Below, piece by piece: positions 2,738 through 54,011 of a stretch of DNA of 64,000 bases (positions are counted from its first letter, which is position 1; each line of letters opens with the position of its first letter). Below the pieces are notes generated by a model. It made no database searches, was not told the DNA's origin, and worked only from the letters and a program-made list of their open reading frames with translations. This DNA comes from an uncultured Clostridia bacterium. GTDB taxonomy: Bacteria; Bacillota; Clostridia; Oscillospirales; Oscillospiraceae. The translations under genes were made by a program, and so were the position numbers. The stretch lies in contig CANAZG010000004.1 in NCBI GenBank assembly GCA_947365965.1, positions 2,919 to 66,918 of the forward strand. The letters run 5' to 3'.

Positions 2738-2788
2738 CTTCTTTTCTTTATGAACCAAGAAAAGAAGCAAAAGAAACACTTGTTAGAC
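2738..2788 (+). repeat. AT-rich hairpin repeat, copy 1 (F orientation)
   Basis: CTTCTTTTCTT tatgaacc AAGAAAAGAAG, then CAAAAGAAACACTTGTTAGAC. Lies between telA and the TPM gene. Confidence 0.75.
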
Positions 2789-2803
2789 AGTTCTGACGGC
2801 AGA

Positions 2804-3976
2804 TTATCCCCGCAGCTCCATGAGCTTCTGCTTCAGCTCGCCCTCAATGCGGCCCAGCTCCACCTCGGCCTCTCGGCGCTTCTGGGCGCCGTCCCGCTGG
2901 ATCTGGATCACCTCGTCCAGGGTGGAGATGAGCTGCTGATTGGTGTGCTGGAGGGTCTCAATGTCGATGATGGCCCGCTCGGCCTCCTTGGCGGTGGCGA
3001 TGGTGCCCATCTTGAGCATGTCCGCGTTCTTCTTGAGCAGCTCGTTGGTGGCGTTGGTCACGGCGGTCTGGGCGGCAGTGGCCTTGCGGCTGTTCTCCAG
3101 GCCCAGGGCCAGCACCATCTGGCTCTTCCACAGGGGGATGGTGTTGACCAGGGAGGACTGGATCTTCTCCACCATCAGGGTGTCGTTATTCTGGAGCATC
3201 CTGGTCTGGGGCCCCATCTGGATGGACACCATGCGGGTCAGCTCCAGGTCGTGGAGCTTCTTGTCAAATCGGTCGCACATCTGAGTCAGATCGTTGTAGG
3301 CCTGGGCGTCCTCCTGCCGGCCGGAGGCCTCCGCCTTTTTGCGCAGCTCCTCCAGCTGTCCGGAGCGGACCTCCGCCAGCCGCTTCTTGCCGGCGATGAT
3401 ATACATGGTCAGCTCCTTGTAGTACTTCAGGTTCAGCTCATACATCTGGTCGAACATGGCGATGTCCTTCATGAGCACCACCTGATGCTGCTCCAGCTCC
3501 CGGGCGATCTTCTCCACATTGGCCTCGGCCTTGCCGTACTGGGCTTTCATGGCCTCCATCTTGTTTCCGGCCTTTTTGAAGAAGCCGAACAGGCCCTTTT
3601 CCTCCTCCTCCTGGCCGAAGCTCTTCAGCTCCACCACCAGACTGGAGAGGGTGTCGCCCACCTCCCCCAGATCCTTGGTGCGCACCTTGCTCAGGGCGCT
3701 CTCGGAGAAGGAGGCCACGCCCTTCTGGGCGGCCACGCCGTATTGCAGGATCAGCTGGGAGTCGTTGAGGTCGATCTTTTTGGAGAAGTCGTCCACCACC
3801 TTCTTCTCCTCCTCGTTGAGCATACTGTCGTCAATCACCACGGGCTCGGCCTTGGGCTTCTCCGGCTCCACGGCAGGGGCGGCGGGCTCAGCGCCCAGGG
3901 TGAGGGTGGGGATCTCCGCCTTGGCCGCGTCGGCGTTCAGGGTCAGCTGGGGCATCATGCCCTCCATGTCAGTCAT
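2804..3976 (-). CDS. TelA/YaaN family toxic-anion-resistance protein
   Basis: 390-aa ORF with an AAGGAGG SD 7 nt upstream. The sequence is coiled-coil rich and TelA-like. It is adjacent to an xpaC-like gene, as in Bacillus xpaC-yaaN. Confidence 0.8.
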   Translation of the reverse strand: MTDMEGMMPQLTLNADAAKAEIPTLTLGAEPAAPAVEPEKPKAEPVVIDDSMLNEEEKKVVDDFSKKIDLNDSQLILQYGVAAQKGVASFSESALSKVRTKDLGEVGDTLSSLVVELKSFGQEEEEKGLFGFFKKAGNKMEAMKAQYGKAEANVEKIARELEQHQVVLMKDIAMFDQMYELNLKYYKELTMYIIAGKKRLAEVRSGQLEELRKKAEASGRQEDAQAYNDLTQMCDRFDKKLHDLELTRMVSIQMGPQTRMLQNNDTLMVEKIQSSLVNTIPLWKSQMVLALGLENSRKATAAQTAVTNATNELLKKNADMLKMGTIATAKEAERAIIDIETLQHTNQQLISTLDEVIQIQRDGAQKRREAEVELGRIEGELKQKLMELRG

Positions 3977-4178
3977 TTTCTGGTCCTCCTTCTTAATTGT
4001 CAGTGAGCACGTCTCTTAGAACCTGTATTCACAACCGTTGACGCTGTCTGTCCGGCCTTTTTCCTGTCATACTGCGTCGATTTTCCTTCCAATCCGTCAG
4101 GATTACTGCGGAAAATCTTCTTGTCTGGCGGGAAAAATCCTCGCCCATCCAGCATCTCCCGGCTATGAATACAGGTTC

Positions 4179-4889
4179 TTACAGTTCAAGCTTGATGTCT
4201 GTGCCGTCGCCGTTCTTGGTGGTCTGGGCCTCCATGTGGTCCCCGGCCAGCCCCTCCCGGGCCAGCATAGTCTCCAGCACGGAGATGTCGGTGGAGATAT
4301 CCAGGGCGTCCTCGCCGAAGAGGCTGTCCAGCTGCTTCTCAAAGGCGGTGACAATCGCGCCCATGATGTTCTCCACCCGCTCCTTGGTGCCGGTGATGTT
4401 CTCCCCGGCCACGCCGGTGGAGTCCATGCGGTCGTAGGCGTTGAGGAGCTTCAGGGTGGTGGGCAGGTAGTAGTCCATAAAGCGGCGGATCTGGGGCAGC
4501 TTGGCGGGGTCCGCCTTCACCTGCTGGAAGATCTGCTGGCACACGGTCTCCAGCCGGCGGATGTCGGCGGAGATCTTCTCGTCCTCGATGGCGTCGTCCA
4601 GACGCTTCATCTCGCTGACAGCCTTCCTGCCGTCGGAGATCATTTTATCCAGCTCCGCATTGCCGGTGGGCTTCTCCTCCTCCTTGGGGGGATCGGGAAT
4701 CGCGGTTTCGATCACCTCGTCCTTGCAGATGCTCCCCAGCAGGAGGAACACCCCTGCGGACAGCAGGGCGGCAAAGACGAAATGGTTCCATCGGTAGAGG
4801 TCAAAGGCCAGGGCGTAGACCACCCAGACGGCGGCCGCACCGTAGAAGGGAGCGGCGGATTTGCGGACTTTTTTGACTGTATTTGGCAT
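4179..4889 (-). CDS. 5-bromo-4-chloroindolyl phosphate hydrolysis (XpaC-like) membrane protein
   Basis: 236-aa ORF with a GAGGAGGG SD, two N-terminal TM helices and an XpaC-like C-terminal domain. It is the first gene of the xpaC-telA-TPM cluster. Confidence 0.7.
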   Translation of the reverse strand: MPNTVKKVRKSAAPFYGAAAVWVVYALAFDLYRWNHFVFAALLSAGVFLLLGSICKDEVIETAIPDPPKEEEKPTGNAELDKMISDGRKAVSEMKRLDDAIEDEKISADIRRLETVCQQIFQQVKADPAKLPQIRRFMDYYLPTTLKLLNAYDRMDSTGVAGENITGTKERVENIMGAIVTAFEKQLDSLFGEDALDISTDISVLETMLAREGLAGDHMEAQTTKNGDGTDIKLEL

Positions 4890-5112
4890 GTAGAGCCCTC
4901 CTCGCTGTTGGTACCTTTAGAGTATACTGCGAAATGGGCGGAAGGTCAAGGAGGGGAAATGAAATTAAGAAGTTTCAGCGGGGAGAGCGCCGTTCCGGCG
5001 GGCAGCCCCGGGGCTGCCCGCCGGAACGGCATTGTCCCCAAAAACAGGATTGCCTCTTTACGAATCCGTCAATATCGTGTAGAATACCCTCAGAAGAAAA
5101 AGAAAGGAGGCG

Positions 5113-7191: not shown

Positions 7192-8013
7192 ATGATGGAA
7201 AGAAAGAAGAATCCGCTGTTTCAATCCAATCGCATCTACCAGATCCCCATAGACCAGATCGTGCCCAACCCCGGTCAGCCCCGCCGTCACTTTGAGGAGC
7301 AGTCCATGCGGGAGCTGGCGGAGTCGGTGCGCCAGCACGGGGTGATTCAGCCTCTGAGCGTGCAGAAGACCGGCAGCGGCTACATGCTGGTGGCCGGGGA
7401 GCGCCGCCTGCGGGCCGCAGGGATGGCGGGGCTGGCCAGGGTGCCCTGCATTCTGGTGAAGGCGTCGCCCCGGGAGAGCGCGGTGCTGGCCCTGGTGGAG
7501 AATTTGCAGCGGTGCGATCTCCACTACATGGACGAGGCGGCGGCCATTGCCCGGCTGATCTCGTCCTACGGCATGAGCCAGGAGGAGGCGGCCCGCCGTC
7601 TGGGCCGGTCCCAGCCGGCGGTGGCCAACAAGCTGCGCCTGCTGCGCCTGAGCGAGGCCTGCGTGTCCCTGCTGCGGCAGTACGGTCTCACGGAGCGCCA
7701 CGCCCGAGCCCTTCTGCGCCTGGAGGGGGAGGAGGCCCAGCTGGCGGCCCTGCGGCACATCGGGGAGCGGGGGCTGAACGTGGCGGCCAGCGAGGAGTAC
7801 ATAGACGCTCTCCTGCAGAAGCCCCAGCGGACGGACCCGCCACGGCGGCCGGTGTATGTCATCAAGGATGTGCGTCTGTTCCTCAACAGCGTCAACCGGG
7901 GCATGGAGACCATCCGCCGGGCCGGCGTCAACGCCCGGTACGACAAACAGGAGAGCGAGGAGGAGATCACCATCACCATCCAGATCCCCAAGCGCAAGGC
8001 TGCGGCGGGGTGA
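7192..8013 (+). CDS. ParB/Noc family protein (second ParB paralogue in the window)
   Basis: 273 aa with a GGGGGAG SD. It has the ParB N-terminal motif GERRLRAA and an HTH region. A Noc versus ParB assignment is not possible by eye. Confidence 0.75.
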   Translation: MMERKKNPLFQSNRIYQIPIDQIVPNPGQPRRHFEEQSMRELAESVRQHGVIQPLSVQKTGSGYMLVAGERRLRAAGMAGLARVPCILVKASPRESAVLALVENLQRCDLHYMDEAAAIARLISSYGMSQEEAARRLGRSQPAVANKLRLLRLSEACVSLLRQYGLTERHARALLRLEGEEAQLAALRHIGERGLNVAASEEYIDALLQKPQRTDPPRRPVYVIKDVRLFLNSVNRGMETIRRAGVNARYDKQESEEEITITIQIPKRKAAAG

Positions 8014-8016: not shown

Positions 8017-8066
8017 GGTAATCATCCTTTTTCTTGAAAGAAAAAGGATCAAAAAGAACTTTTAAC
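8017..8066 (+). repeat. AT-rich hairpin repeat, copy 2 (F)
   Basis: GGTAATCATCCTTTTTCTTGAAAGAAAAAGGATCAAAAAGAACTTTTAAC, 4 nt after the ParB/Noc stop. Confidence 0.85.
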
Positions 8067-8483
8067 GGCGATGAAATATCTGCCGGCAGTCTATTGAGGG
8101 GTCATGTGCAAAGGTGATTTCATCATTGGGCAGGTTGGGGCGTTCCGGATATACCTGGGGCGCTCTTTTTCTTTATTCCCTGTTGTTCGGAGCGGCACAG
8201 CAGCCAAATGCGTCTGAAAAGGACCGGCGCAGATGCGCCGGTCCTTTTCAGGGGGTGGCGGCGTTCAGCCGCCAACAAGCGTCCGGTATCTATTCAGAAT
8301 GTTTGCCGCTGCGATTAAGCTTATAACTTAAATAAATGGGGGATCGAAAACCATCTGTAGTGAAGATATTGCTTGTGCATATCCATTCCAAAAAGATATT
8401 TTATAGTGATGGAAACCTCCGGCTGTTTTTTGCGACTATATAAGCGAAGGCACGCTAACGATACACTGAAAGGAGCGAAAAAG

Positions 8484-15444: not shown

Positions 15445-15488
15445 AAGCAACAGATTATTTGATAAACTTTTACTTAGGAGGCGATGCC

Positions 15489-16562
15489 ATGACCCAGCGG
15501 GAGCGGCAAATTCTGCGCTGGATCGAGGAGGACCCCATGATCAGCCAGCAGGAGCTGGCGGACAAGGCGGGGATCACCCGGTCCTCGGCGGCTGTACACA
15601 TCTCCAACCTGATGAAAAAGGGCCACATCGCCGGCCGGGGCTACATCGTGCGCACCGCGCCCTACGCCGTGGTGGTGGGGGGTGTGAACATGGACGTGGG
15701 CGGCCGGTCCTACGAGGGGCTGATTCCCCGTGACTCCAACCCCGGCCGGGTGCGCATGAGTCTGGGCGGCGTGGGGCGGAACATCGCCCACAACATGGCA
15801 CTGATGGGGGTGGAGGTCCACCTGCTCACCGCCTTCGGGGACGACGTATCCGCCCAGAAGGTGGCCGCCTCCTGCGGCGAGCTGAACATCGACATCAGCC
15901 ACGCCCTCCAGGTGCCCGGCGGCGCCACCTCCACCTACCTCTATATTGCTGGTCCCTCCGGGGACATGGAACTGGCGGTGGCGGACATGGAGATCTATGA
16001 CCACGTGACCCCGGCCTTTCTGGCCTCCCGGGCCGCCCTCCTCAACAGCGCCCAGCTGGTGGTGGTGGACACCAACATCCCCGCCCCCTCCATCCAGTGG
16101 CTGGCGGAGAACTGCACGGTACCCCTCTTTGCGGACCCGGTCTCCACCACCAAGGCGGAGAAGCTACGGCCCGTCCTGGGCCGGCTCCACACCCTCAAGC
16201 CCAACCGGCTGGAGGCGGAGCTGCTCAGCGGCGTGGCCATCACGGACGCGGACAGCGCGGGCAGGGCGGCGGAGGCCCTGCTGGAGACCGGACTGCGGCG
16301 GGTATTCATCAGCATGGGCGGGGACGGCGTTCTGGCGGCGGACCACTCCGGGAAGCTCCACGTGCCCTGCATCCCCGGGGAGATGGTAAATACCACCGGC
16401 TGCGGGGACGCCTTTATGGCGGCCATTGCCTGGGCATACTTGGAGGGTACGGACCTGGAGGGGACGGCCCGGGCCGGTCTGGCGGCCTCCTCCATTGCCA
16501 TGGAGAGCGGGGAGACCATCAACCCCGCCATGAGCGTGGAGGGGATCAGGAGCCGGATTTAG
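15489..16562 (+). CDS. psuK: wHTH-fused PfkB-family kinase, probable pseudouridine kinase
   Basis: Start moved to ATG 15489 (AGGAGG SD). N-terminal wHTH (MTQRERQILRWIEEDPMISQQELADKAGITRSS) plus a ribokinase-like core (GGVGRN, TTGCGDAF). The adjacent psuG supports the call. Confidence 0.7.
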   Translation: MTQRERQILRWIEEDPMISQQELADKAGITRSSAAVHISNLMKKGHIAGRGYIVRTAPYAVVVGGVNMDVGGRSYEGLIPRDSNPGRVRMSLGGVGRNIAHNMALMGVEVHLLTAFGDDVSAQKVAASCGELNIDISHALQVPGGATSTYLYIAGPSGDMELAVADMEIYDHVTPAFLASRAALLNSAQLVVVDTNIPAPSIQWLAENCTVPLFADPVSTTKAEKLRPVLGRLHTLKPNRLEAELLSGVAITDADSAGRAAEALLETGLRRVFISMGGDGVLAADHSGKLHVPCIPGEMVNTTGCGDAFMAAIAWAYLEGTDLEGTARAGLAASSIAMESGETINPAMSVEGIRSRI

Positions 16563-16567: not shown

Positions 16568-16617
16568 TGTAATCATTCTTTTTCTTGAAAGAAAAAGAAT
16601 CAAAAAGAACTTTTCAC
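16568..16617 (+). repeat. AT-rich hairpin repeat, copy 3 (F)
   Basis: TGTAATCATTCTTTTTCTTGAAAGAAAAAGAATCAAAAAGAACTTTTCAC, 6 nt after the psuK stop. Confidence 0.85.
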
Positions 16618-17617: not shown

Positions 17618-17956
17618 GTGAAGACCCTCTTCCAACCCGAGGCCGCCGGGAGCACACTGTGGGTCCTGATGGGTTCCCCCCTGCCTCTGCTGGCGGGATA
17701 TCTGCTGCTGATTAACCTGTGGGCCTTCGGTCTGATGGGCTTTGACAAGAGCCGGGCCAGACGGCGGGGCGCGCGGCGGATCCGGGAGCGGACCCTGTTT
17801 CTCTCCGCCCTTCTGGGCGGCGGCCTGGGGGCTGTCCTGGGCATGTGGGTCTTCCGCCATAAGACCAGACACTGGTATTTCGTCTGGGGTCTGCCTTTGA
17901 TTCTCCTGGCGCAGATCGCCCTGGCGGTGTGGCTTGCCCGCTGGTTGACAGTATGA
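17618..17956 (+). CDS. DUF1294 family membrane protein
   Basis: 112 aa. GTG start abuts the psuG stop. GFDKSRARRRGARRIRERTL motif and hydrophobic helices. Confidence 0.65.
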   Translation: MKTLFQPEAAGSTLWVLMGSPLPLLAGYLLLINLWAFGLMGFDKSRARRRGARRIRERTLFLSALLGGGLGAVLGMWVFRHKTRHWYFVWGLPLILLAQIALAVWLARWLTV

Positions 17957-17971
17957 CGGTTTTGTCCGGCG

Positions 17972-17987
17972 TGTTTCACGTGAAACA
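17972..17987. other. parS site 1 (perfect TGTTTCACGTGAAACA)
   Basis: 16/16 match to the Firmicutes parS consensus TGTTnCACGTGAAACA. It is the centre of a perfect 28-bp palindrome (17966-17993) followed by a T-run. Confidence 0.85.
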
Positions 17988-18071
17988 CGCCGGACTTTTT
18001 TCGCCTCCAAGTCCGCCAGGGCCGGTCTGTGGGAGGACAGGCAGACGCTCCCCGGCAGGTCAGAACAGGGA

Positions 18072-18087
18072 TGTTTCACGTGAAACG
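18072..18087. other. parS site 2 (TGTTTCACGTGAAACG, one mismatch)
   Basis: 15/16 match to parS, 100 bp from site 1. GGG/CCC flanks and a downstream TATTTTTT. Confidence 0.75.
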
Positions 18088-19941: not shown

Positions 19942-20157
19942 ATGATCTGGACGATTATCGGCGGCCTGTTCCTGCTGCTCCTTGGCGCTGCGGCCTTTCT
20001 GTGGCCGAAGACTGTGTGGGAGATCACGGAGCGGTGGAAACTCAATGGCGACGGGGAGCCCTCGGACTTCTATCTGGCTTTTACAAAGTACGGCGGCCTC
20101 TTGCTGGCCCTGCTGGGTCTGGCCGGCGTTCTGACGGCGCTCTTTGTCCATGGATGA
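19942..20157 (+). CDS. Small two-TM membrane protein
   Basis: 71-aa ORF with a GGGGAG SD and two hydrophobic helices. Confidence 0.5.
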   Translation: MIWTIIGGLFLLLLGAAAFLWPKTVWEITERWKLNGDGEPSDFYLAFTKYGGLLLALLGLAGVLTALFVHG

Positions 20158-20176: not shown

Positions 20177-20232
20177 CTAAAGTTTTTCTTTTTGATTCTT
20201 TTTCTTTGTTCACAAAGAAAAAGAATGATTAC
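20177..20232 (-). repeat. AT-rich hairpin repeat, copy 4 (R)
   Basis: TCTAAAGTTTTTCTTTTTGATTCTTTTTCTTTGTTCACAAAGAAAAAGAATGATTACC. Confidence 0.85.
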
Positions 20233-20251
20233 CAAACATAGAAAGACGGCA

Positions 20252-20267
20252 TGTTTCACGTGAAACA
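20252..20267. other. parS site 3 (perfect TGTTTCACGTGAAACA)
   Basis: 16/16 match. Centre of a perfect 24-bp palindrome (20248-20271), 17 nt before the serS start. Confidence 0.85.
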
Positions 20268-20283: not shown

Positions 20284-21588
20284 ATGCTGGATATCAGATT
20301 CATCCGGGAAAACCCGGACATTGTGAAGGAAAACATTAAAAAGAAGTTCCAGGAGGAGAAGCTGCCCCTGGTGGACCGGGCGCTGGCCCTGGACAGCGAA
20401 AACCGGGCCGCCATCACCGAGGCCAGCGAGCTCCGTGCACAGCGGAATACCCTCAGCAAGCAGGTGGGGATGCTCATGGGCCAGGCCAAGAAGGATCCCT
20501 CCAAGCTGGAGGAGGCCGAGGCGGTGAAGGCCCAGGTGAAGGCCAACGCCCAGCGGCTGGCGGAGCTGGAGGCCCGGGAGGCGGAGCTGGAGGCGGAGCT
20601 CCACAAGCTGCTGCTGGTGATCCCCAATATCATTGATCCCTCTGTGCCCATTGGGCCCGACGACAGCGCCAACGTGGAGGTGGAGCGGTTCGGCGAGCCC
20701 GCTGTGCCGGACTTTGACATCCCCTACCACACGGAGATCATGGAGCGATTTGCCGGCATTGATATGGACGCCGCCGGCCGGGTGTCCGGCAACGGATTCT
20801 ATTACCTTATGGGGGACATCGCCCGGCTCCACGAGGCTGTACTGGCCTATGCTCGGGACTTTATGATTGACAAGGGGTTCACCTTCTGCATCCCCCCCTT
20901 CATGATCCACGGCAATGTGGTAGAGGGGGTCATGAGCCAGACGGACATGGACAGCATGATGTACAAGATCGAGGGAGAGGACCTGTACCTCATCGGCACC
21001 AGCGAGCACTCCATGATCGGCAAGTTCATTGACCAGATCCTCTCGGAGAGCCAGCTGCCCCAGACCCTGACCTCCTACTCTCCCTGCTTCCGGAAGGAGA
21101 AGGGGGCCCACGGCATCGAGGAACGGGGCGTGTACCGGATCCACCAGTTCGAGAAGCAGGAGATGATCGTGGTCTGCAAGCCCGAGGAGTCCATGGACTG
21201 GTATGAGAAGATGTGGCGCTACAGCGTGGAACTGTTCCGGAGTCTGGATATCCCGGTGCGGCAGCTGGAGTGCTGCTCCGGCGATCTGGCGGACCTGAAG
21301 GTAAAGAGCTGCGACATCGAGGCCTGGAGTCCCCGGCAGAAGAAGTACTTCGAGGTCTGCTCCTGCTCCAACCTGGGGGACGCCCAGGCCCGGCGGCTGA
21401 AGATCCGGGTCAAGGGGGAGGATGGAAAGAACTACCTGCCCCACACCCTGAACAACACCGTGGTGGCCCCGCCCCGGATGCTCATCGCGTTTCTGGAGAA
21501 CAACCTGCGCGCCGACGGTACTGTGCAGATCCCGGAGCCCCTCCAGCGGTACATGGGCGGCGTGACCCAGCTCACACCCAGGCAGTAA
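20284..21588 (+). CDS. serS: Serine--tRNA ligase
   Basis: Start moved to ATG 20284 (GCAGGAGGAG SD, MLDIRFIRENP) because the in-frame ATG at 20251 lies inside parS. N-terminal coiled coil and class II core. Confidence 0.92.
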   Translation: MLDIRFIRENPDIVKENIKKKFQEEKLPLVDRALALDSENRAAITEASELRAQRNTLSKQVGMLMGQAKKDPSKLEEAEAVKAQVKANAQRLAELEAREAELEAELHKLLLVIPNIIDPSVPIGPDDSANVEVERFGEPAVPDFDIPYHTEIMERFAGIDMDAAGRVSGNGFYYLMGDIARLHEAVLAYARDFMIDKGFTFCIPPFMIHGNVVEGVMSQTDMDSMMYKIEGEDLYLIGTSEHSMIGKFIDQILSESQLPQTLTSYSPCFRKEKGAHGIEERGVYRIHQFEKQEMIVVCKPEESMDWYEKMWRYSVELFRSLDIPVRQLECCSGDLADLKVKSCDIEAWSPRQKKYFEVCSCSNLGDAQARRLKIRVKGEDGKNYLPHTLNNTVVAPPRMLIAFLENNLRADGTVQIPEPLQRYMGGVTQLTPRQ

Positions 21589-21616: not shown

Positions 21617-21670
21617 GTTCTTTTTGCCTCTTTTTCTCGTAAGAATAAAGAAGGTCAATGAATGATAAAG
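21617..21670 (-). repeat. AT-rich hairpin repeat, degenerate copy (R)
   Basis: GTTCTTTTTGCCTCTTTTTCTCGTAAGAATAAAGAAGGTCAATGAATGAT. The tail and the left arm are recognisable, but the stem is imperfect. It follows the serS stop. Confidence 0.5.
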
Positions 21671-21681
21671 GAGAAACGGCT

Positions 21682-22056
21682 ATGAAGAAGTTCTGGAAGG
21701 TACTGGGGATCACGGCGGCCGTGGCGGCTCTGACTCCCTACCGCATCTACAAGGACGAGGAGACTGGCGAGAAGAAGATCGAGGCCCTCCTCTGGAGAGC
21801 CACCACCGGGACCAATGACGAGGAGAAGATGACCCTGGATGTCAGCGTGGGCATCCAGTCCCCCTTCGCCCCCAAGAGCGAGGAGCCCCTCTTTGAGGAG
21901 GAACTGGTGGCGGAGTTTGAGATTACCGACGAGGACCAGAGCGCCGGCGAGGCGGAGGACGGGGAGGAACCCGCAGAGGAGCCTGCGGTGGCCCAGGAGG
22001 AGACCGAGGCCTCTGAGGAGGATCCGGCCCAGGAGACGGAGGACCCGGCTGAGTAA
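21682..22056 (+). CDS. Hypothetical membrane-anchored acidic protein
   Basis: Start moved to ATG 21682 (AAAGGAG SD, MKKFWKVLGITAAVAAL). The C-terminal half is Glu/Asp/Pro/Ala-rich. Confidence 0.5.
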   Translation: MKKFWKVLGITAAVAALTPYRIYKDEETGEKKIEALLWRATTGTNDEEKMTLDVSVGIQSPFAPKSEEPLFEEELVAEFEITDEDQSAGEAEDGEEPAEEPAVAQEETEASEEDPAQETEDPAE

Positions 22057-22082: not shown

Positions 22083-22475
22083 ATGAAGAAGTTTTTACAG
22101 GAATTCAGAGCCTTCGCCATGCGGGGGAATGTGATGGATCTGGCTGTGGGCGTGATCGTAGGCGGTGCCTTCAGCTCCATCACCACCTCCCTGATTAACG
22201 ACATCATCATGCCCATTGTGGGCATCTTCGTCAGCGAGGCCAGCTTCGCGGACCTGACCCTCAGCGTGGGGGGCGCGGTCATCACCTACGGCAGCTTTAT
22301 TCAGGCCGTCCTCAACTTTGTCATTCTGGCCTTTGTGGTCTTCTGCATGGTCAAGGCGGTAAACCGGGTGGCCCACACCCAGAAGAAGGAGGAGGCCCCC
22401 CCTCCCCCGCCGGCGCCCTCCCATGAGGAGAAGCTTCTGACGGAGATCCGGGATCTGCTCAAGGAGCGGAAATGA
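22083..22475 (+). CDS. mscL: Large-conductance mechanosensitive channel
   Basis: 130 aa. Canonical N-terminus FAMRGNVMDLAVGVIVG. Confidence 0.9.
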   Translation: MKKFLQEFRAFAMRGNVMDLAVGVIVGGAFSSITTSLINDIIMPIVGIFVSEASFADLTLSVGGAVITYGSFIQAVLNFVILAFVVFCMVKAVNRVAHTQKKEEAPPPPPAPSHEEKLLTEIRDLLKERK

Positions 22476-23161
22476 GAGCCACGCTGGAGCAGGGCCTGCC
22501 GGCCCTGGGAATGGGCCTGGAGCTGATAGAGCCCCTGGAGGCCTTCAGCCGGATGCTGCTGGAGAAAAACCAGGTGATGAACCTGACCGCCATCACGGAG
22601 CCCAGGGACGTGGCGGCCCTGCACCTGCTGGACAGTCTGGCGGGAGTGGCCGGCCTGGAGGCCGGGACGGTGGTGGACGTGGGCACCGGGGCCGGGTTTC
22701 CCGGCGTGCCCCTGGCCATCGCCCGGCCCTCCGTCCGGGTAACCCTTCTGGACAGCCTGGGCAAGCGGGTGGACTTCCTGCGGGAGAGCTGCCGGGAGCT
22801 GGGACTGGAGAACGTGGAGTGCGTCCACGGCCGGGCGGAGGAGTTCGCTGGGGAGCGGCGGGAGCGCTTTGATCTGGCCGTCAGCCGGGCAGTAGCCGCC
22901 CTGCCCATGCTGTGCGAGCTGTGCCTGCCCCTGGTGAAGGTGGGCGGAGCCTTTTGGGCCATGAAGAGCGTGGACACCGAGGAGGAGATCAGCGCCTCCA
23001 AGGCCGCTATCAAGCTGCTGGGCGGACATATTCAGACAGTCAGCGACTACACCATCCCCACCACAGAGGTGGTCCACCGGGTGGTGCGCATTCAGAAGAT
23101 CGGGCCCACACCGAAGAAATATCCCAGGCGGTTTGCCCTTATCAAGAAGCAGCCCCTTTGA
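22472..23161 (+). CDS. rsmG: 16S rRNA (guanine527-N7)-methyltransferase
   Basis: 229 aa. ATGA overlap with the mscL stop. SAM motif VVDVGTGAGFPG. Confidence 0.88.
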   Translation: MRATLEQGLPALGMGLELIEPLEAFSRMLLEKNQVMNLTAITEPRDVAALHLLDSLAGVAGLEAGTVVDVGTGAGFPGVPLAIARPSVRVTLLDSLGKRVDFLRESCRELGLENVECVHGRAEEFAGERRERFDLAVSRAVAALPMLCELCLPLVKVGGAFWAMKSVDTEEEISASKAAIKLLGGHIQTVSDYTIPTTEVVHRVVRIQKIGPTPKKYPRRFALIKKQPL

Positions 23162-23165: not shown

Positions 23166-23228
23166 TGATATTTTCTGTACTTTTTCTTTGTGAACAAAGA
23201 AAAAGTACCAAAAAGAAAAACTTTAGAG
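23166..23228 (+). repeat. AT-rich hairpin repeat, copy 5 (F)
   Basis: ..GTACTTTTTCTTTGTGAACAAAGAAAAAGTACCAAAAAGAAAAACTTTAGAG, 5 nt after the rsmG stop. Confidence 0.85.
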
Positions 23229-23327
23229 ATCTGTATAGCAACTGCTGGCGGCAGCAATATACATTCATTGAAAACGTTCTTTTTAATCTATTTTCGGAGG
23301 TGATGTTCCACGGGTCAGACAATCGCC

Positions 23328-26833: not shown

Positions 26834-28612
26834 ATGACACAGAATCGGACCCATACCTGCAACGAGCTCCGCATGGAGCACGTGGGGCAGAAGGTAAAGC
26901 TCTCCGGCTGGATGGAGAATGTGCGGGAGGTGGGGCAGAATTTCGCCTTTGTGATCCTCCGGGACTTCTACGGCACTACCCAGGTGGTCATTGAGACCGA
27001 GGAGATGATGGAGATCATCCACGGCCTGAACAAGGAGAGCGTGATCTCCGTGGAGGGCACGGTCCGGGAGCGGAGCAGCAAGAACAAGAACCTGCCCACC
27101 GGCGAAATAGAGGTGCTGCCGGAGCGGATCGAGGTGCTGGGCAAATGCCGGTATAACGAGCTCCCCTTCCAGATTGGCCGCAGCCGGGAGGCCGACGAGA
27201 CTCTGCGGCTGAAGCACCGCTATCTGGATCTCCGCAACCCAGAGGTGAAGAGCAACATTGTTCTGCGCTGCAACGTGGTCTCCGCCATCCGGCAGGCCAT
27301 GACGGACCACGGCTTCCTGGAGATCACCACCCCCATCCTCACCGCCTCCTCCCCCGAGGGGGCCCGGGACTACCTGGTGCCGGCCCGGAAGCATCCGGGC
27401 AAGTTCTACGCCCTGCCCCAGGCCCCCCAGCAGTTCAAGCAGCTGCTGATGGCCTCCGGCTTTGACAAGTACTTCCAGATCGCCCCCTGCTTCCGGGACG
27501 AGGACGCCCGGGGGGACCGCTCCCCCGGCGAGTTCTACCAGCTGGACATGGAGATGAGCTTTGCCACCCAGGACGACGTGTTCGCGGTGCTGGAGGACGT
27601 CTTCCCCCCCATCTTCGCCAAGTACGGCAAATATAACGTGGCCTCCACCGCCCCCTTCCGCCGCATCGGCTACCGGGAGGCCATGGAGACCTACGGCTCC
27701 GACAAGCCGGACCTCCGCATTGACCTGACGGTCCAGGACGCCACGGAGCTGCTGGCGGACTGCGGCTTTGAGCCCTTTGCCGGGAACACGGTGAAGGCCA
27801 TTGTGGTCACCGACTTCACCGCAGCCAGAAAGCAGATCGACAAGCTGTGCGCGGACGTGGAGGTCCAGGCGGGGAACAAGGCCTACTGGTTCCGGCTGGA
27901 CGAGAAGAGCGAGCTGGTGGGCGGCATCAGCAAGTTTGTGGCGGAGAGAAAGGACCAGGTTGTGGAGAAGCTGGGCCTGACGCCCGGGTGCTTCGTAGGC
28001 CTCACCGCCGGGAAGAAGGGCGCGGCCCAGAAGACCGCCGGCGTGCTCCGGTCCAAGCTGGGGGCCCTGTGCCCCAACCACATGGACAGGGAGCGGTACG
28101 AGTTCTGCTGGATCGTGGACTTCCCCATGTATGAGATCGGCGAAGAGAGCGGGGAGCTGGAGTTCTGCCACAACCCCTTCTCCATGCCCAACGGCGGCGC
28201 GGCCATTCTTGAAAGGGCCATTGCCGGGGAGGTGGATCCGCTGACCATCACCGCCTTCCAGTATGATCTGGTGTGCAACGGCGTGGAGCTCAGCTCCGGC
28301 GCGGTGCGCAACCACGATCCGGAGATCATGATTAAGGCCTTCCAGCTGGTGCGCCTGGGTGAGGACGACGTGAAGAGCAAGTTCCCCGCCATGTACAACG
28401 CCTTCTGCTACGGCGCACCCCCCCACGCCGGCATTGCCCCGGGCATTGACCGCATGGTCATGCTCCTGGCCGGCGAGGAGTCCATCCGGGAGATCATCCC
28501 CTTCCCCATGAACAAGAACGCCCAGGATATCATGATGGGCGCGCCCTCCGAGGTGGAGCAGCGGCAGCTGGATGAGCTGCACATTGCCGTGACCGCGGCG
28601 GAGGACCAGTAA
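26834..28612 (+). CDS. aspS: Aspartate--tRNA ligase
   Basis: 592 aa. Bacterial-type AspRS with an OB fold, FYALPQAPQQFKQLLM, an insertion domain and GIDRMVMLL. Confidence 0.92.
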   Translation: MTQNRTHTCNELRMEHVGQKVKLSGWMENVREVGQNFAFVILRDFYGTTQVVIETEEMMEIIHGLNKESVISVEGTVRERSSKNKNLPTGEIEVLPERIEVLGKCRYNELPFQIGRSREADETLRLKHRYLDLRNPEVKSNIVLRCNVVSAIRQAMTDHGFLEITTPILTASSPEGARDYLVPARKHPGKFYALPQAPQQFKQLLMASGFDKYFQIAPCFRDEDARGDRSPGEFYQLDMEMSFATQDDVFAVLEDVFPPIFAKYGKYNVASTAPFRRIGYREAMETYGSDKPDLRIDLTVQDATELLADCGFEPFAGNTVKAIVVTDFTAARKQIDKLCADVEVQAGNKAYWFRLDEKSELVGGISKFVAERKDQVVEKLGLTPGCFVGLTAGKKGAAQKTAGVLRSKLGALCPNHMDRERYEFCWIVDFPMYEIGEESGELEFCHNPFSMPNGGAAILERAIAGEVDPLTITAFQYDLVCNGVELSSGAVRNHDPEIMIKAFQLVRLGEDDVKSKFPAMYNAFCYGAPPHAGIAPGIDRMVMLLAGEESIREIIPFPMNKNAQDIMMGAPSEVEQRQLDELHIAVTAAEDQ

Positions 28613-28665: not shown

Positions 28666-28723
28666 GTGCTCCATCAGACTGCGGATATGCTTTCGATCAG
28701 CCTGCCGGCGGTAGGTGGACCAC

Positions 28724-36949: not shown

Positions 36950-37054
36950 GGGAAAGATTTGTTTTTCACGGAAATCCGGGGTTTTAGAAGAGAGCCTCCC
37001 CGTGAATTTCTGTTGGCACTTGACAAACGGGACCAATCCGGCTATACTAAAAAA

Positions 37055-37143
37055 AGAAAGGGCGCTGCCGGCAGACGGTTAGCCCCTCACTTTGGTAAAA
37101 GAAGTAACCGCGTGCTTGGAGGCGTGGCGGTTACTTCTTTTTG
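37055..37143 (+). ncRNA. Candidate antitoxin sRNA 1 (~90 nt)
   Basis: Promoter TTGACA (37020)-17-TATACT (37043). 14-bp terminator stem AAAGAAGTAACCGC/GCGGTTACTTCTTT plus a T-run (37098-37142). The 3' end is antisense to the last codons and the stop of the toxin ORF. Contains CCCCUC. Confidence 0.55.
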
Positions 37144-37223
37144 CAGTTATATACCTGTAAAAACAGGCCGCAAAGGCCAATGATAACCAGACAGAACTGG
37201 AACAGCTCTGAATATGTCAACAT
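37131..37223 (-). CDS. Candidate type I toxin, holin-like-toxin (Hol-Tox)-type 30-aa peptide, copy 1
   Basis: GGGAGGGGG SD, 4 nt, ATG. Peptide MLTYSELFQFCLVIIGLCGLFLQVYNCKKK (one TM helix plus a KKK tail). Below the ORF-track size cutoff. Promoter TTGCAG-17-TGgTATTCT at 37328-37356. Confidence 0.6.
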   Translation of the reverse strand: MLTYSELFQFCLVIIGLCGLFLQVYNCKKK

Positions 37224-37327
37224 GGCACCCCCTCCCTTCTTCGGAGGGGGCAGAAGTCCCCTCCGGGCTGGAGAGACTGTCCGCCTGCCAACTGGCAGCG
37301 CTGAAAGATATTTCTTTCCTGTCTCTC

Positions 37328-37356
37328 AGAATACCACACATTTCCACAAACTGCAA
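37328..37356 (-). promoter_or_regulatory. Candidate promoter of toxin mRNA 1
   Basis: On the minus strand: TTGCAG (37351-37356), 17-nt spacer, extended -10 TGgTATTCT (37328-37333). It leaves a ~98-nt structured 5' UTR containing an anti-SD CCCCCTCC. Confidence 0.55.
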
Positions 37357-37424
37357 TCTGTTTTGTCAGGAAATTTGCTCTGCATTCCCTTGACAAATGG
37401 GACCAATCCGGCTATACTAAAAAA

Positions 37425-37511
37425 GAAGGGCGTTGCCGGCAGACGGTTAGCCCCTCGCTGTGCGATAAGAAGTAACTGTTCGCTTGGAGGCTCGGCGGTT
37501 ACTTCTTTTTG
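37425..37511 (+). ncRNA. Candidate antitoxin sRNA 2 (~87 nt)
   Basis: Promoter TTGACA (37390)-17-TATACT (37413). 12-bp terminator stem (37467-37507) plus a T-run. The 3' end overlaps toxin ORF 2. Confidence 0.55.
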
Positions 37512-37591
37512 CAGTTATATACCTGTAGGAACAGGCCGCAAAGGCCAATGATAACAAGACAGTACTGAAACAGATCTGAATATGTCAACAT
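37499..37591 (-). CDS. Candidate type I toxin, Hol-Tox-type 30-aa peptide, copy 2
   Basis: Peptide MLTYSDLFQYCLVIIGLCGLFLQVYNCKKK. It differs from copy 1 by two conservative changes (E6D, F10Y) plus synonymous changes. Same SD. Promoter TTGCAA-17-TATGCT at 37696-37724. Confidence 0.6.
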   Translation of the reverse strand: MLTYSDLFQYCLVIIGLCGLFLQVYNCKKK

Positions 37592-37745
37592 GGCACCCCC
37601 TCCCTTCTTCGGAGAGGGCAGAAGTCCCCTCCGGGATGGAGAGGCTCTCCGCCTGCCAACTGGCAGCGCTGAAAGATATTTCTTTCCTGTCTCTCAGCAT
37701 ACCACACGTTTCCACAAATTGCAATCCATTATCTGCCCAATTCGC

Positions 37746-38129: not shown

Positions 38130-38143
38130 ATTTTTTCTCCTTT

Positions 38144-38210
38144 CTTTTGACTCAATTATAGCGTCAAATTTCCCCTTTTTGTGTTTTTGACGCTATAATT
38201 GAGTCAAAAG
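38144..38210. promoter_or_regulatory. Perfect 25-bp inverted repeat (operator-like) between divergent small genes
   Basis: CTTTTGACTCAATTATAGCGTCAAA (38144-38168), 17-nt spacer, TTTGACGCTATAATTGAGTCAAAAG (38186-38210). Each arm carries an outward-facing TATAAT. Confidence 0.7.
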
Positions 38211-38231
38211 AACGTCGAAGGAGCTCAGGGT

Positions 38232-46111: not shown

Positions 46112-46180
46112 ATGAAGCGTAACCAAAACACCACCCATCTCCCTCACAGCGTATCAGCACGGAAGGAGGTGAGCCGGTGA
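46112..46180 (+). CDS. Possible 22-aa leader ORF coupled to folT
   Basis: GAAGGAGGAG SD 6 nt before the ATG. Peptide MKRNQNTTHLPHSVSARKEVSR. Its TGA overlaps the folT GTG (GTGA). No homology recognised. Confidence 0.25.
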   Translation: MKRNQNTTHLPHSVSARKEVSR

Positions 46181-47208
46181 GGCCAGTCAAGACGAGCACA
46201 CTGTACGCCACCCCCTTCTCCAAGGAGTACTGGCGGGACGCCGCCGCGGAGCTGCGGGACACCCGTATGCTGGTGTTCGCGGCCCTGATGATCGCCCTGC
46301 GGGTGGCCCTGAAGAGCCTGGGCATCCCCATTGCGGCGGATCTGAAGATCAACATCGCCTTTTTTGTCAACGCTTTCGGCGCCATGGTCTTCGGCCCCGT
46401 GGTGGCCATTGTGGCCGCCGCCATCTCCGACACCCTGGGGTGTCTGCTGGTCCCCTCGGGGGCCTACTTCTTCCCCTTTATCTTCATCGAGATCGCCGGG
46501 TCCCTGATCTTCGCCCTGTTCCTCTACCGGGCCAGGGTCACCGCCACCCGGGTCATCCTGTCCCGGTTCTGCATTGACTTCTTTGTCAACATCGTGCTCA
46601 ACACCCCCATCATGTGGCTGTACTACAAGATGGTGCTGGGCAAGTCCTACGCCATCTTCCAGCTGCCCCGGATCATCAAGAATCTGGCCCTGTTCCCTCT
46701 CGAGAGCGTGCTGCTGGTCCTGTTCCTCACGGCCATGATGCCTGTGGGCGCACGCTTCGGCCTGCTCTACGACAAGGGAGAGAACCTGCGGCTGCGCAAG
46801 CGTCAGGTGGCGCTGCTGGTCACCCTGTTTGTAGTGGGCGCGGCCTGCGTGGGGGGCTACTACGTATATAATTACAACACCAGCAACCACGCCTCCAAGC
46901 TGCCCCCGGCGGAGGTGACGGCAATCAACGGCGCACTGACCCAGCTGGGGACGGACCAGGGCCTTCTCCAGGATGGTCAGGTGGTTACAGTGAACAAGGT
47001 CTACAAGAAGCTGCGGGGGGACACCACTGTGGAGTTCACGGTCTACCAAACCACGGCGGAGACGGATCTGAACGCGGTGGCCGGATATCTGGAGAAGGCG
47101 GCCAAGGAGGACGCCACCCTGACCAAGGTGGCCTCCGGCAGCGCCCTGCTGGTGGGAGACGCCGCAGCGGCAGCCACGGGGATGACTGTGAAACCGGAGG
47201 GACAGTGA
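46177..47208 (+). CDS. folT: Folate-family ECF transporter S component (FolT-like) with a C-terminal extension
   Basis: 343 aa. GTG start with a GGAAGGAGG SD. The first ~190 aa look like a multi-TM ECF S component. They are followed by an extra TM helix and a ~130-aa soluble domain. Confidence 0.7.
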   Translation: MRPVKTSTLYATPFSKEYWRDAAAELRDTRMLVFAALMIALRVALKSLGIPIAADLKINIAFFVNAFGAMVFGPVVAIVAAAISDTLGCLLVPSGAYFFPFIFIEIAGSLIFALFLYRARVTATRVILSRFCIDFFVNIVLNTPIMWLYYKMVLGKSYAIFQLPRIIKNLALFPLESVLLVLFLTAMMPVGARFGLLYDKGENLRLRKRQVALLVTLFVVGAACVGGYYVYNYNTSNHASKLPPAEVTAINGALTQLGTDQGLLQDGQVVTVNKVYKKLRGDTTVEFTVYQTTAETDLNAVAGYLEKAAKEDATLTKVASGSALLVGDAAAAATGMTVKPEGQ

Positions 47209-47218: not shown

Positions 47219-47270
47219 TCTCTAAAGTTTTTCTTTTGCTTCTTTTCTTTGTTCACAAAGAAAAGAAGAG
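47219..47270 (-). repeat. AT-rich hairpin repeat, copy 8 (R)
   Basis: TCTCTAAAGTTTTTCTTTTGCTTCTTTTCTTTGTTCACAAAGAAAAGAAGAG, 10 nt after the folT stop. Confidence 0.85.
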
Positions 47271-49592: not shown

Positions 49593-49844
49593 ATGTTTTC
49601 AAAAGAATTGTTTGGTGAAAGGGTTTCCGTAATTCGAAAACAGCATGGCGAGACGCAAAAAATGCTGGGAGACACCATCGGAATGAGCAGCAATAATGTC
49701 AGCGAGATGGAGGGAGGAAAGAAAACAACCACCTCCGAAAAGATCGCTAAGATCTGCCGCCATTACCATGTCTCCGCCGATTACCTGCTGGGTCTCTCCG
49801 ATGACATGCAGGGGGGTATATACAGCTGGACCGACGAAGAATAA
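49593..49844 (+). CDS. XRE-family HTH transcriptional regulator (copy 1)
   Basis: Start moved to ATG 49593. 83 aa: MFSKELFGERVSVIRKQHGETQKMLGD..., an HTH_3-like fold. Confidence 0.75.
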   Translation: MFSKELFGERVSVIRKQHGETQKMLGDTIGMSSNNVSEMEGGKKTTTSEKIAKICRHYHVSADYLLGLSDDMQGGIYSWTDEE

Positions 49845-49906
49845 TTTCCCTTAACCGATGGATATTTTCGTTAGAGAGCTATTCGCAAACTTGTTAAGAG
49901 GTAACT

Positions 49907-50158
49907 ATGTTTTCCAGAGAACTATTTGGTCAAAGATTGCTTGAACTCCGACAACAGCATAAAGAAAAGCAGGATGACCTAGGCACAGTTATCTCTACTG
50001 GCAGAACAGCTATCAGCGAAATGGAGAGCGGCCGAAAAACGACAACTACCGAGAAACTCTCCTTGATCTGCCGCCACTACCATGTCTCCGCCGACTATCT
50101 GCTGGGCCTCTCTGATGACATGCAGGGCGGCACAGACCGATGGACCGACGAAGAATAA
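49907..50158 (+). CDS. XRE-family HTH transcriptional regulator (copy 2, tandem paralogue)
   Basis: 83 aa. The C-terminal ICRHYHVSADYLLGLSDDMQGG..WTDEE is identical to copy 1 despite synonymous nucleotide differences. Confidence 0.75.
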   Translation: MFSRELFGQRLLELRQQHKEKQDDLGTVISTGRTAISEMESGRKTTTTEKLSLICRHYHVSADYLLGLSDDMQGGTDRWTDEE

Positions 50159-50180
50159 TCTCCGTTAATCGCTGAATCCA

Positions 50181-51011: not shown

Positions 51012-51038
51012 ATCATCGAAAGAAAGAGGATAATTGAT

Positions 51039-51899: not shown

Positions 51900-51914
51900 T
51901 CGGGGGCGGTTTTA

Positions 51915-53252: not shown

Positions 53253-53255
53253 ACT

Positions 53256-53819
53256 ATGACAAAACAGGCCATCCGGTCCGAGGTGGCCGCACGGGTCAAG
53301 AACCTGTCCCCGGTGTACTGCCGGGAGGCGGACGAGGCCATCTGCCGCTGCCTTCTCCAGTCCAAGCTGTATCAGAAGGCCCGGACTATTCTGTGCTACA
53401 TAGGCACATCCGCAGAGATCAACACCATGCCTCTGCTCCACGCCGCTCTCCGGGACGGCAAGATCCTGGCCCTGCCCCTGTGCAGCCAGGAGAAAGGGAT
53501 CATGGAGGCCCGGCAGATTGCGGGGCTGGGGGATCTGGTCAGCGGCCGGTTCGGCATTCTGGCGCCCAAGCTCCAGTGTCCCCTGGTGGCGCCGGAGGAC
53601 ATTGACCTTGTGGTGGTCCCCTGCGCCACAGGCAATGCCAAGGGTCTCCGGTTGGGCTACGGCGGCGGGTACTATGACCGCTATCTGCCCCAGACCCGGT
53701 GTCCGGCGGTGCTGCTGTGCCGCACCCATGTCATGCGGGAGGACATCCCCATGGAGGACCACGATGTGGTGATGGATTACCTGATTACCGAGAAGGGCAT
53801 CACTGCCTGCAAGGAATAA
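53256..53819 (+). CDS. 5-formyltetrahydrofolate cyclo-ligase
   Basis: 187 aa. GYGGGYYDRYL motif. Confidence 0.88.
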   Translation: MTKQAIRSEVAARVKNLSPVYCREADEAICRCLLQSKLYQKARTILCYIGTSAEINTMPLLHAALRDGKILALPLCSQEKGIMEARQIAGLGDLVSGRFGILAPKLQCPLVAPEDIDLVVVPCATGNAKGLRLGYGGGYYDRYLPQTRCPAVLLCRTHVMREDIPMEDHDVVMDYLITEKGITACKE

Positions 53820-53878
53820 CGCAGAGCCAGGGAACCGCCCGATAGAGCGGTTCCCTGGCTGTCGTTTGTTGCCATTTT

Positions 53879-53930
53879 TGTTATCATTCTTTTTCTTGAA
53901 AGAAAATGAATCAAAAAGAACTTTTATACC
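53879..53930 (+). repeat. AT-rich hairpin repeat, copy 9 (F; left half of a doublet)
   Basis: TGTTATCATTCTTTTTCTTGAAAGAAAATGAATCAAAAAGAACTTTTATACC. Confidence 0.85.
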
Positions 53931-53960
53931 CTCCTCGAGCGCATTCTGACGATAGAACAC

Positions 53961-54011
53961 GTCTAAAGTTTTTCTTTTGCTTCTTTTCTTTGTTCACAAA
54001 GAAAAGAAGAG
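53961..54011 (-). repeat. AT-rich hairpin repeat, copy 10 (R; right half of a doublet)
   Basis: GTCTAAAGTTTTTCTTTTGCTTCTTTTCTTTGTTCACAAAGAAAAGAAGAG. Near-identical to copy 8. Confidence 0.85.

Follow-up and report, generated by a model that had tools for sequence, protein, structure and literature searches.

We analyzed a 64,000-nucleotide stretch of DNA, hereafter the window, from an uncultured Clostridia bacterium of the family Oscillospiraceae (assembly GCA_947365965.1, contig CANAZG010000004.1, positions 2,919 to 66,918), in which a hairpin-forming module of about 50 nt recurs between genes. A sequence pattern describing the module, TTTTCTTN{2,8}AAGAAAAN{4,8}AAAAGAA, matched the window 10 times, compared with 0 matches expected from 100 dinucleotide-preserving shuffles. 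The same 10 sites were recovered, with E-values from 1e-15 to 2e-5, by a profile hidden Markov model (HMM) of the module trained on 102 distinct copies. Together with a degenerate copy at 21618-21656 (HMM E = 0.05), the window holds 10 intact modules and 1 degenerate one, in agreement with the copies listed in an original prediction made from the same sequence, whereas a half copy claimed there near 34538 is not credible (HMM E = 2.2). Genes in the window were called from third-position GC and checked with Pfam, and all 11 copies are intergenic. They occur on both the plus and the minus strand, as had been proposed.

Architecture of the modules and doublets

Written with its T-rich arm first, the module consists of an outer sequence G-G-Y-A-T-A-C-A-T, a 4-nt clamp, the T-arm T(n)CT(m), a loop, the A-arm A(m)GA(n), the complementary clamp, a C, a tail A(n)GA(m) and a terminal C-T-T-T. 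The clamp-proximal runs of the arms have n = 4, 5 or 6 and the distal runs m = 2-6, and sequence conservation ends 11 nt outside the clamp. The long-loop (L) form has a 14-bp stem and a UGAA/UUCA tetraloop (...CTTTG-TGAA-CAAAG..., with GTGAAC as the loop segment), and the short-loop (S) form has an 11-bp stem and the identical tetraloop, that is, the L form minus three base pairs. Folding with ViennaRNA, which considers Watson-Crick pairs only, gave hairpin energies of -11 to -16 kcal/mol, and z-scores with DNA parameters were -3.7 to -4.9. The window is about 62% GC, whereas the stems are A/T except for one C:G pair and the clamp, so that the near-pure A/T core described earlier is accurate.

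The full element is a doublet of two inverted modules, with tails inward, around a lineage-specific GC-rich center. We found 35 tails-inward inverted pairs and no tails-outward pair; they span 124-469 bp, with a median of 180 bp. An L and an S module are combined in 22 of the 35 doublets, with neither order preferred when set against the direction of the genes (11 versus 7). The two partners of a doublet (F..R doublets in loci L121-L228) share n in only 3 of 26 cases, where 45% would be expected (p = 3e-4); the typical combination is L4+S5, and L5+S6 is also seen. A long hairpin formed by pairing of the two modules was accordingly rejected, because the partners differ in n in the other 23. Pairing of the tail with the following T-run into a third hairpin was likewise set aside: it is possible, but its length does not track n. 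In the window lineage the doublet centers carry palindromes like CTGCCGGCAG, and in several relatives they contain two small GC hairpins, each followed by a T-run. Furthermore, metagenome-assembled genomes (MAGs) of Oscillibacter contain inverted-repeat elements of about 450 bp with the same modules as termini.

Two composite doublets lie in the window. The first, at 28613-28770 on both strands, stands immediately past the stop codon of aspS (26834-28612) and comprises an S-variant module on the plus strand (28613-28661; n=4, m=4), a 67-nt center containing CTGCCGGCGG, and an S module on the minus strand (28729-28770; n=5, clamp ATAC/GTAT) that ends at the ribosome-binding site of a GH3 gene. 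The second, at 53879-54014 on both strands, lies between a 5-formyl-tetrahydrofolate (THF) cyclo-ligase gene (53256-53819) and cobS; its plus-strand S module (53883-53924; n=5, one stem mismatch) is followed by a 40-nt center and a minus-strand L module (53965-54011; n=4, clamp CTTC/GAAG). The copies at 28613 and 28724, and those at 53879 and 53961, which the original prediction had counted separately, are therefore each one composite element and not two insertions.

The remaining modules are single or have decayed partners. An L-type module with the variant loop ATGAACC (2736-2782, plus strand; n=4, clamp CTTC/GAAG; HMM E 7e-12) sits between telA (2804-3976, minus strand) and a TPM-domain gene (1680-2720, minus strand); read along these neighbors, its tail precedes its hairpin, which stops about 17 nt short of the ATG of the TPM gene. 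An S-type module (8017-8062, plus strand; n=5, clamp ATCC/GGAT; HMM E 7e-8) begins 3 nt past the stop codon of a ParB/Noc-like gene (7192-8013) and is followed by a center with the CTGCCGGCAG palindrome and a decayed partner remnant near 8160-8180 (CTCTTTTTCTTTATTCC). Another S-type module (16569-16614, plus strand; n=5, clamp ATTC/GAAT) starts 6 nt past the stop codon of a PfkB-family kinase gene (15459-16562). Both sides of serS (about 20284-21588) are occupied: upstream, an L-type module (20179-20233, minus strand; n=5, clamp ATTC/GAAT) has its tail toward a DUF6199 gene (19942-20157) and its hairpin toward serS, and downstream the degenerate S-type module (21618-21656, minus strand) lies between serS and a small gene (21658-22056). 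The clamp of an L-type module at 23175-23224 (plus strand; n=5, clamp GTAC/GTAC) starts 14 nt past the stop codon of rsmG (22472-23161), with a decayed partner tail near 23262-23290. Finally, the tail of an L-type module at 47223-47269 (minus strand; n=4, clamp CTTC/GAAG; HMM E 2e-15) begins about 10 nt past the stop codon of an ECF-S (folT-like) gene (46177-47208), which is itself downstream of a THF riboswitch.

In some loci, a second family of short, GC-rich hairpins (GCCGCTAAAGCGGC, GTCGCCAAAGGCGGC, GCCGCCCAACGGGCGGC, GTCGCTTCGCGAGCC) was found inside the AT-rich modules. At L200:2087, L201:3371 and L212:7727 these hairpins share the same insertion point, between the A-arm and the tail, and in L130 and L143 related GC hairpins split the T-arm. 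This arrangement points to nested repeats or to a preferred break point.

Abundance in gut Oscillospiraceae

When one genome per species was searched with a 20-nt core taken from the long-loop form, more than 108 genome stretches were returned, which, among the matches listed, were nearly all from Oscillospiraceae MAGs, many of them from mouse gut. The carriers include Oscillibacter sp., Candidatus Pelethomonas and MGBC/MGG assemblies, and a mouse-gut MAG, GCA_948947855.1, belongs to the same species as the window. The few core matches in Neisseria, Polynucleobacter and others are due to chance, the rest of the module being missing. At least 25 related Oscillospiraceae MAGs contain the module, as do gut metagenomes. 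With the HMM we counted 162 modules in 741 kb of sequence (the window plus genome loci) and 174 in 810 kb of independent metagenome contigs, so that the enrichment is not confined to the window and the abundant, unnamed repeat family of MITE or REP type envisaged originally is supported. After allowing for the selection of loci, the density is about 1 module per 5-10 kb, which extrapolates to a few hundred modules per genome.

Among the phage contigs of IMG/VR no module was found; the only two matches lack the clamp and the tail and are due to chance, and a phage origin was rejected. An earlier, looser pattern likewise gave only chance matches in AT-rich viral contigs.

Covariation of the clamp, the arms and the tail

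The two strands of the clamp are perfectly complementary in about 117 of 128 copies and use at least 10 types of Watson-Crick pair, and the metagenome set adds the complementary clamps GTCC/GGAC, TTCC/GGAA and GTGC/GCAC. Since MAFFT alignment of mixed length classes placed indels inconsistently, we used a structured parse and a gap-free alignment of 41 copies from one length class instead. In this alignment 99.6% of the cells are paired, and 3 pairs show double-sided changes (28 cells). None of 500 shuffles reached the observed covariation score, and structures slid by 1-3 columns scored about zero; the covariation of the clamp that had been read from the window copies is thereby upheld.

The tail had been described as resembling the T-rich arm and as a possible competitor for the A-rich arm. 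Instead, it is a mirror repeat of the A-arm and not its reverse complement. The clamp-proximal A-run of the tail equals that of the A-arm in 136 of the 139 copies parsed, compared with a mean of 63 and a maximum of 84 in 10,000 shuffles, and the independent metagenome set gave 117 of 120 (shuffle maximum 74). The T-arm, A-arm and tail change together: their proximal runs are 4,4,4 in 68 copies, 5,5,5 in 60 and 6,6,6 in 5. The distal runs match too, with equal A counts in the tail of S-type copies with m = 2, 3, 4 or 5 (46/50), and in L-type copies that are one base pair longer the tail is one longer as well. Moreover, in the copy at L193:6362 the T-arm, the A-arm and the tail have each gained a 3-nt insertion, at positions that mirror one another.

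Every major clamp/loop class includes copies of both n states, and so does one flank subfamily in a single genome (L138 versus L182), so the concordance does not simply reflect two old lineages. Nor can it be attributed to Watson-Crick competition between tail and arm: the alternative hairpin would pair the proximal run of the arm with the distal run of the tail, whereas it is the runs adjacent to the clamp that match, as expected of mirror symmetry.

Position at gene boundaries

Only 9 of the 162 modules lie inside predicted genes. The clamp, or outer, side faces a gene end in 101 modules, at a median distance of 11 nt and in a quarter of the cases within 2 nt, and faces a gene start in 55, at a median of 26 nt and just upstream of the ribosome-binding site. 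From the tail side, the next gene is 140-157 nt away (medians). The general rule is that hairpins face genes and tails face the intergenic center. Thus, the placement just after stop codons put forward in the original prediction holds for gene ends but leaves out an equally regular placement at gene starts, and the tails-inward doublet explains both.

In neither orientation is the hairpin followed by a U-run, and a consensus scan placed no promoter and no terminator within any module, in keeping with the earlier statement that the hairpins are not canonical terminators. A GC-rich intrinsic terminator (CCAGGGAACCGC...GCGGTTCCCTGG followed by a T-rich run) lies at 53825-53875, between the cyclo-ligase stop codon and the second repeat doublet, so that termination there does not depend on the repeat.

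Variation and persistence at orthologous sites

In three related genomes (L175:~2820-2870, L217:~1100-1160 and L149:~4270-4330) an L module overlaps the end of an open reading frame (ORF) orthologous to window positions 17618-17956. The C-terminal codons are replaced by the element, which provides the stop codon, and the ORF ends at the TGA of the GTGAAC loop. Conversely, the site past the PfkB-family kinase gene, which holds a module in the window, is empty in all three of these genomes, with a 48-nt spacer in L175 and longer spacers in L149 and L217. Past aspS, three genomes each have a subtype of their own and a fourth has no module.

The site past rsmG is polymorphic within one species, the flanking genes being 99.3-99.7% identical. 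One allele is a doublet of about 150 bp (L236:4696-4870) and the other a 22-nt hairpin, CCGCCTTTTTCTCTAAAAACGG (L238:4696-4760). The hairpin in L238 has a new clamp, CCG/CGG, that pairs flanking DNA with an altered 3' arm and, for this reason, is not a simple deletion product.

Other copies have persisted. The doublet at 53.9 kb is present in 7 of 7 strains of the species examined, and a sister species, although it differs from the window species at 19-26% of fourfold-degenerate sites, has modules in the same places on both sides of serS. For the upstream one, which is 55 nt long, the sister loci L238 and L241 show no substitutions and L236 shows one inserted base; under the synonymous rate, the chance of zero substitutions is about 1e-6. 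The module that is degenerate at 21618-21656 is intact at the orthologous site of the sister species and absent from a more distant relative. At the rsmG site the clamp has been compensated in place, from GTAC/GTAC in the window to GTTC/GAAC in the sister species or the reverse, with the core unchanged.

A probable mobile origin and a potential triplex fold

We consider it probable that the modules form a non-autonomous interspersed repeat family of the REP/BIME/REPIN/BoxC kind, specific to a clade of gut Oscillospiraceae, in which a folded single strand is required by the machinery that mobilizes or maintains the copies. The copies would have arisen by transposition-like spread, as suggested by hundreds of near-identical copies at unrelated sites, by insertion into the 3' ends of genes and by the larger elements with the same termini. 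They would have survived only in the short permissive stretch that separates a stop codon from the following ribosome-binding site and, since the spread, would have been inherited mostly vertically. Each module is predicted to fold on a single strand into an A/T hairpin of 11-14 bp, to which the tail could add an exactly matching third strand, in Hoogsteen or reverse-Hoogsteen fashion, so that a potential intrastrand triplex results. This folded single-stranded form may be the substrate needed by a trans-acting enzyme, mobilizing or maintaining, in which case only copies with T-arm, A-arm and tail in register would multiply or persist. The data show the family itself, its anatomy and placement, the two-way covariation of the clamp and the three-way covariation in length, whereas mobility by such an enzyme, triplex folding and any host benefit are what we infer.

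The order of blocks is suited to a triplex on either strand. The T-rich strand reads T(m)CT(n), a 5-nt turn, T(n)CT(m), a loop and A(m)GA(n), that is, Hoogsteen, pyrimidine and purine blocks in T.A-T / C+.G-C register, and corresponds to a class IV intrastrand triplex motif. On the A-rich strand a pyrimidine block, a purine block and a reverse-Hoogsteen block follow one another, corresponding to class II. According to PMC4666352, the ITxF definition calls for three consecutive blocks, stems of 6-15 nt with at most 1 mismatch and loops of 1-6 nt; the module has a stem of 8-11 nt, loops of 4 and 5 nt, and the register described above in 136/139 and 117/120 copies. The same source reports that single-stranded TMECO, a G/C-rich repeat of Escherichia coli that belongs to this class, forms a stable triplex in vitro. 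That the triple-helical fold is itself under selection, either as a single-stranded DNA substrate in mobilization or as a U.A-U/C+.G-C RNA triple helix capping the 5' leader of the downstream gene, is a tentative proposal to which we give less credence than to the family's mobile origin.

Several observations weigh against these interpretations. No transposase of any kind was found in about 1.55 Mb of module-bearing loci. In the same loci, a phmmer search with one IS200 TnpA sequence gave no match; all-against-all clustering of ORFs returned only housekeeping paralogues (ABC transporters, response regulators), and nothing but housekeeping genes, for example dnaB, plsX, rnc, trmFO and cbiD, lies between modules paired at 0.5-4 kb. 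No flanking direct repeat indicative of a target-site duplication was seen in 30 doublets, TA at the element edge being weakly enriched (13-14% versus about 5%), and we found no clean pair of filled and empty sites with exact boundaries, so that the case for mobility is an indirect one. Furthermore, selfish spread explains the copies conserved at orthologous sites across species no better than a host function or concerted evolution would. As for the triplex, it would need the 4-bp clamp, which forms the turn, to be open, yet the clamp covaries; since the clamp both pairs and serves as the turn, the hairpin with its clamp and the triplex would have to be alternative states. Finally, the authors of PMC4666352 detected a triplex of E. 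coli TMECO neither in double-stranded DNA nor in vivo.

Alternative explanations

The original prediction had offered an RNA 3'-end stabilizer, a processing site and a protein-binding site as hypothetical roles. Conservation at orthologous sites leads to the main rival reading, which we regard as unlikely on the whole, in which the doublet is a host RNA element, an intercistronic punctuation module of the mRNA kept for tuning the stability of the neighboring cistrons. Cleavage would occur in the A/U-rich tails or in the center, the hairpin beside the upstream gene would guard that gene's 3' end from exonucleases, and the hairpin before the downstream ribosome-binding site would guard the new 5' end, possibly with the help of a U.A-U triple helix formed with the U-rich tail. 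Some REP/BIME sequences of E. coli have been shown to tune the relative stability of cistrons in this manner. The geometry of the doublet agrees with such a role, as hairpins always point toward genes and tails inward, hairpins end 0-30 nt before ribosome-binding sites, and the inner hairpins of relatives, with their T-runs, resemble convergent terminators. So does its evolution: at orthologous sites the modules have changed far less than synonymous positions have, the clamp at the rsmG site changed with compensation in place, and L238/L241 lost most of the element yet keep a new hairpin with a new clamp.

On the other hand, the modules occur in both orientations relative to transcription, and only one orientation yields two U-rich strands. 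The transcribed strand shows no excess of G.U-type mismatches (4 versus 2, with 18 other), so that strand-specific G.U tolerance, which we considered as a sign of RNA-level selection, was dropped: the mismatches are too few and show no bias. A stability hairpin, moreover, needs structure and not a near-identical sequence across hundreds of sites. Nor would this reading account for the mirror tail on the A-rich side, at gene ends, since RNA does not form purine-motif triplexes, as stated in PMC4666352.

Still less probable, in our view, is a site acting as double-stranded DNA, which might extrude a cruciform or H-DNA under negative supercoiling, or bind gyrase, IHF or a nucleoid protein as proposed for BIMEs, and so mark the boundaries of transcription units. 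The modules are placed strictly at gene boundaries whatever the gene orientation; H-DNA requires a homopurine mirror repeat whose halves are 4-6 nt apart, and the A-arm and tail with the clamp between them make exactly that; the doublet centers carry lineage-specific palindromes such as CTGCCGGCAG; and the unequal n of doublet partners would favor local structures over one long cruciform. However, H-DNA would be expected to have mirror halves longer than the 8-11 nt seen here, no candidate protein can be named, and mirror symmetry on a DNA duplex is not something that a dimeric protein could recognize. We consider it very unlikely that the modules are ordinary transcription signals that merely look repetitive, namely a bidirectional terminator or an outward promoter: their intergenic location, an outward TTGATT-N17-AAGAAT read from the sequence of the S module and the T-runs after the inner hairpins of relatives would suit such signals, but the A/T hairpin lacks a U-run in either orientation, the consensus scan identified neither a promoter nor a terminator in any module, a proper GC-rich terminator at 53825-53875 already precedes one element, and convergent evolution could not produce hundreds of near-identical 50-mers.

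Relationship to described repeats

Rfam returned no family at the gathering threshold on the element in the window and 17 related loci, so that no known RNA family matches, and searches of the literature by taxon, repeat type and the element's own sequence found no account of this family. The view that the repeat family is unnamed thus holds at the level of sequence but not of structure, since the class of potential intrastrand triplex repeats, with BoxC/PIT/TMECO as its example, is already described (PMC4666352). We file the element as an A/T-rich, undescribed addition to this class, combined with a REP/BIME-like doublet organization, and not as a member of the BoxC sequence family.

The BoxC/PIT/TMECO repeats of E. 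coli and other Proteobacteria (Hoyne et al. 2000; Holder et al. 2015, PMC4666352) resemble the module in being interspersed and extragenic, often arranged as inverted pairs on opposite strands, and in their order of pyrimidine stem, short loop, purine stem, short loop and a second purine block able to act as third strand. Neither has an associated function or, as PMC4666352 reports for TMECO, promoter or terminator activity. Inverted TMECO pairs are, by the same account, prone to deletions that still leave a hairpin, and by analogy the L238 allele matches such deletions. The sequences are unrelated: the A/T-rich T(n)CT(m) of the module contrasts with the G/C-rich CCCTCNCCC, and no sequence is shared with the BoxC/TMECO consensus as given there, CCCTCNCCC-N3-6-GGGNGAGGG-N3-GGGNGAGGG. 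The module is found in Bacillota, unlike its proteobacterial counterparts, and it alone has an additional 4-bp covarying clamp where the second loop would be, a defined L/S doublet and conserved GGYATACAT termini. Its third block is a strict mirror that co-varies in length with both arms, whereas for TMECO the sections consulted report no evolutionary evidence of this kind.

The REP/BIME/REPIN sequences of Enterobacteria and Pseudomonas share with the module the form of short, imperfect, extragenic palindromes in hundreds of copies, compensatory stem changes, the lack of target duplication and long vertical persistence. The Y and Z palindromic units of BIMEs, the REP doublet of REPINs and the module doublet all place two inverted module types around a central motif. 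Unlike REP, the module has no GT(A/G)G at the 5' foot of the hairpin, its outer consensus being G-G-Y-A-T-A-C-A-T followed by the clamp; its A/T-rich stem stands in a GC-rich genome, and a mirror tail is not a described feature of REP. Nor was a RAYT or IS200-like gene seen in the 1.55 Mb searched with the one TnpA sequence.

With the Correia elements of Neisseria and other miniature inverted-repeat transposable elements (MITEs; RUP, BOX, ERIC), the elements have in common that they are non-coding, 100-500 bp long, bounded by long terminal inverted repeats, located at gene boundaries, co-transcribed with their neighbors and found as size variants with the same termini. Their inverted termini of about 55 nt and their span of 124-469 bp agree with the terminal inverted repeats and the size of less than about 500 bp that characterize a MITE. 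In contrast to Correia elements and MITEs, they have no TA or other target-site duplication and no known parent insertion sequence, and each terminus is itself a self-folding hairpin with a tail.

ENE elements, known from PAN and MALAT1 and, as ENE-like sequences, from plant and fungal transposons, confer stability through an RNA triple helix in which an A-rich 3' tail is clamped by a U-rich internal loop. Like an ENE, a module transcribed tail-first would bring two U-rich strands together with an A-rich one, and its stack of U.A-U triples would be interrupted once, by C+.G-C. Unlike an ENE, its three strands are contiguous, with turns of 4-5 nt, only one orientation could form the triple helix, and there is no Rfam match.

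Other features of the window

The window contains three parS sites (TGTTTCACGTGAAACA), at 17972-17987, 18072-18087 and 20252-20267, of which two are perfect and one has 1 mismatch. The first lies inside a terminator-like hairpin (17964-17995, followed by a T-run) upstream of parA, and the third stands 19 nt past the module at 20179-20233, in the serS leader. Together with parAB, rsmG and mscL, the parS sites mark an origin-proximal region.

Three further repeats lie outside the family. A tandem direct repeat of about 300 nt within 37019-37718 consists of copies at 37051-37350 and 37419-37718 that are 91% identical, each preceded by a near-consensus promoter, TTGACA-N17-TATACT. The repeat has no convincing ORF and no Rfam match and, judging from these features, may represent two copies of a small RNA gene outside the known families, beside the T-box and 6S RNA loci. 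A 34-nt inverted repeat at 38135-38219, 91% complementary with 17 nt between its arms, lies in an AT-rich stretch and gave only spurious matches to microRNA models. A 165-nt direct repeat (49699-49863 and 50013-50177, 79% identical), for which no Rfam family was found, occupies the long non-coding gap between the formate-THF ligase and FTCD_C genes.

Implications

In the roughly 25 years since triplex motifs of the PIT/BoxC type became known, no evidence has indicated that their third strand matters, and the sequence variation described here argues that it does: three segments change length together in mirror register, which Watson-Crick pairing cannot explain. If the triplex is indeed under selection, this would be the first comparative evidence, from covariation, for the use of intrastrand triplexes in bacteria, and the natural length series of n=4-6 and m=2-6 is suited to testing the role of the triplex. 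Interspersed palindromic repeats have been well studied in Proteobacteria but hardly in gut Clostridia. In the uncultured Oscillospiraceae of the mouse gut, the family provides dense, conserved and structured landmarks, about 1 per 5-10 kb, and such landmarks will affect genome assembly, operon prediction and strain typing.

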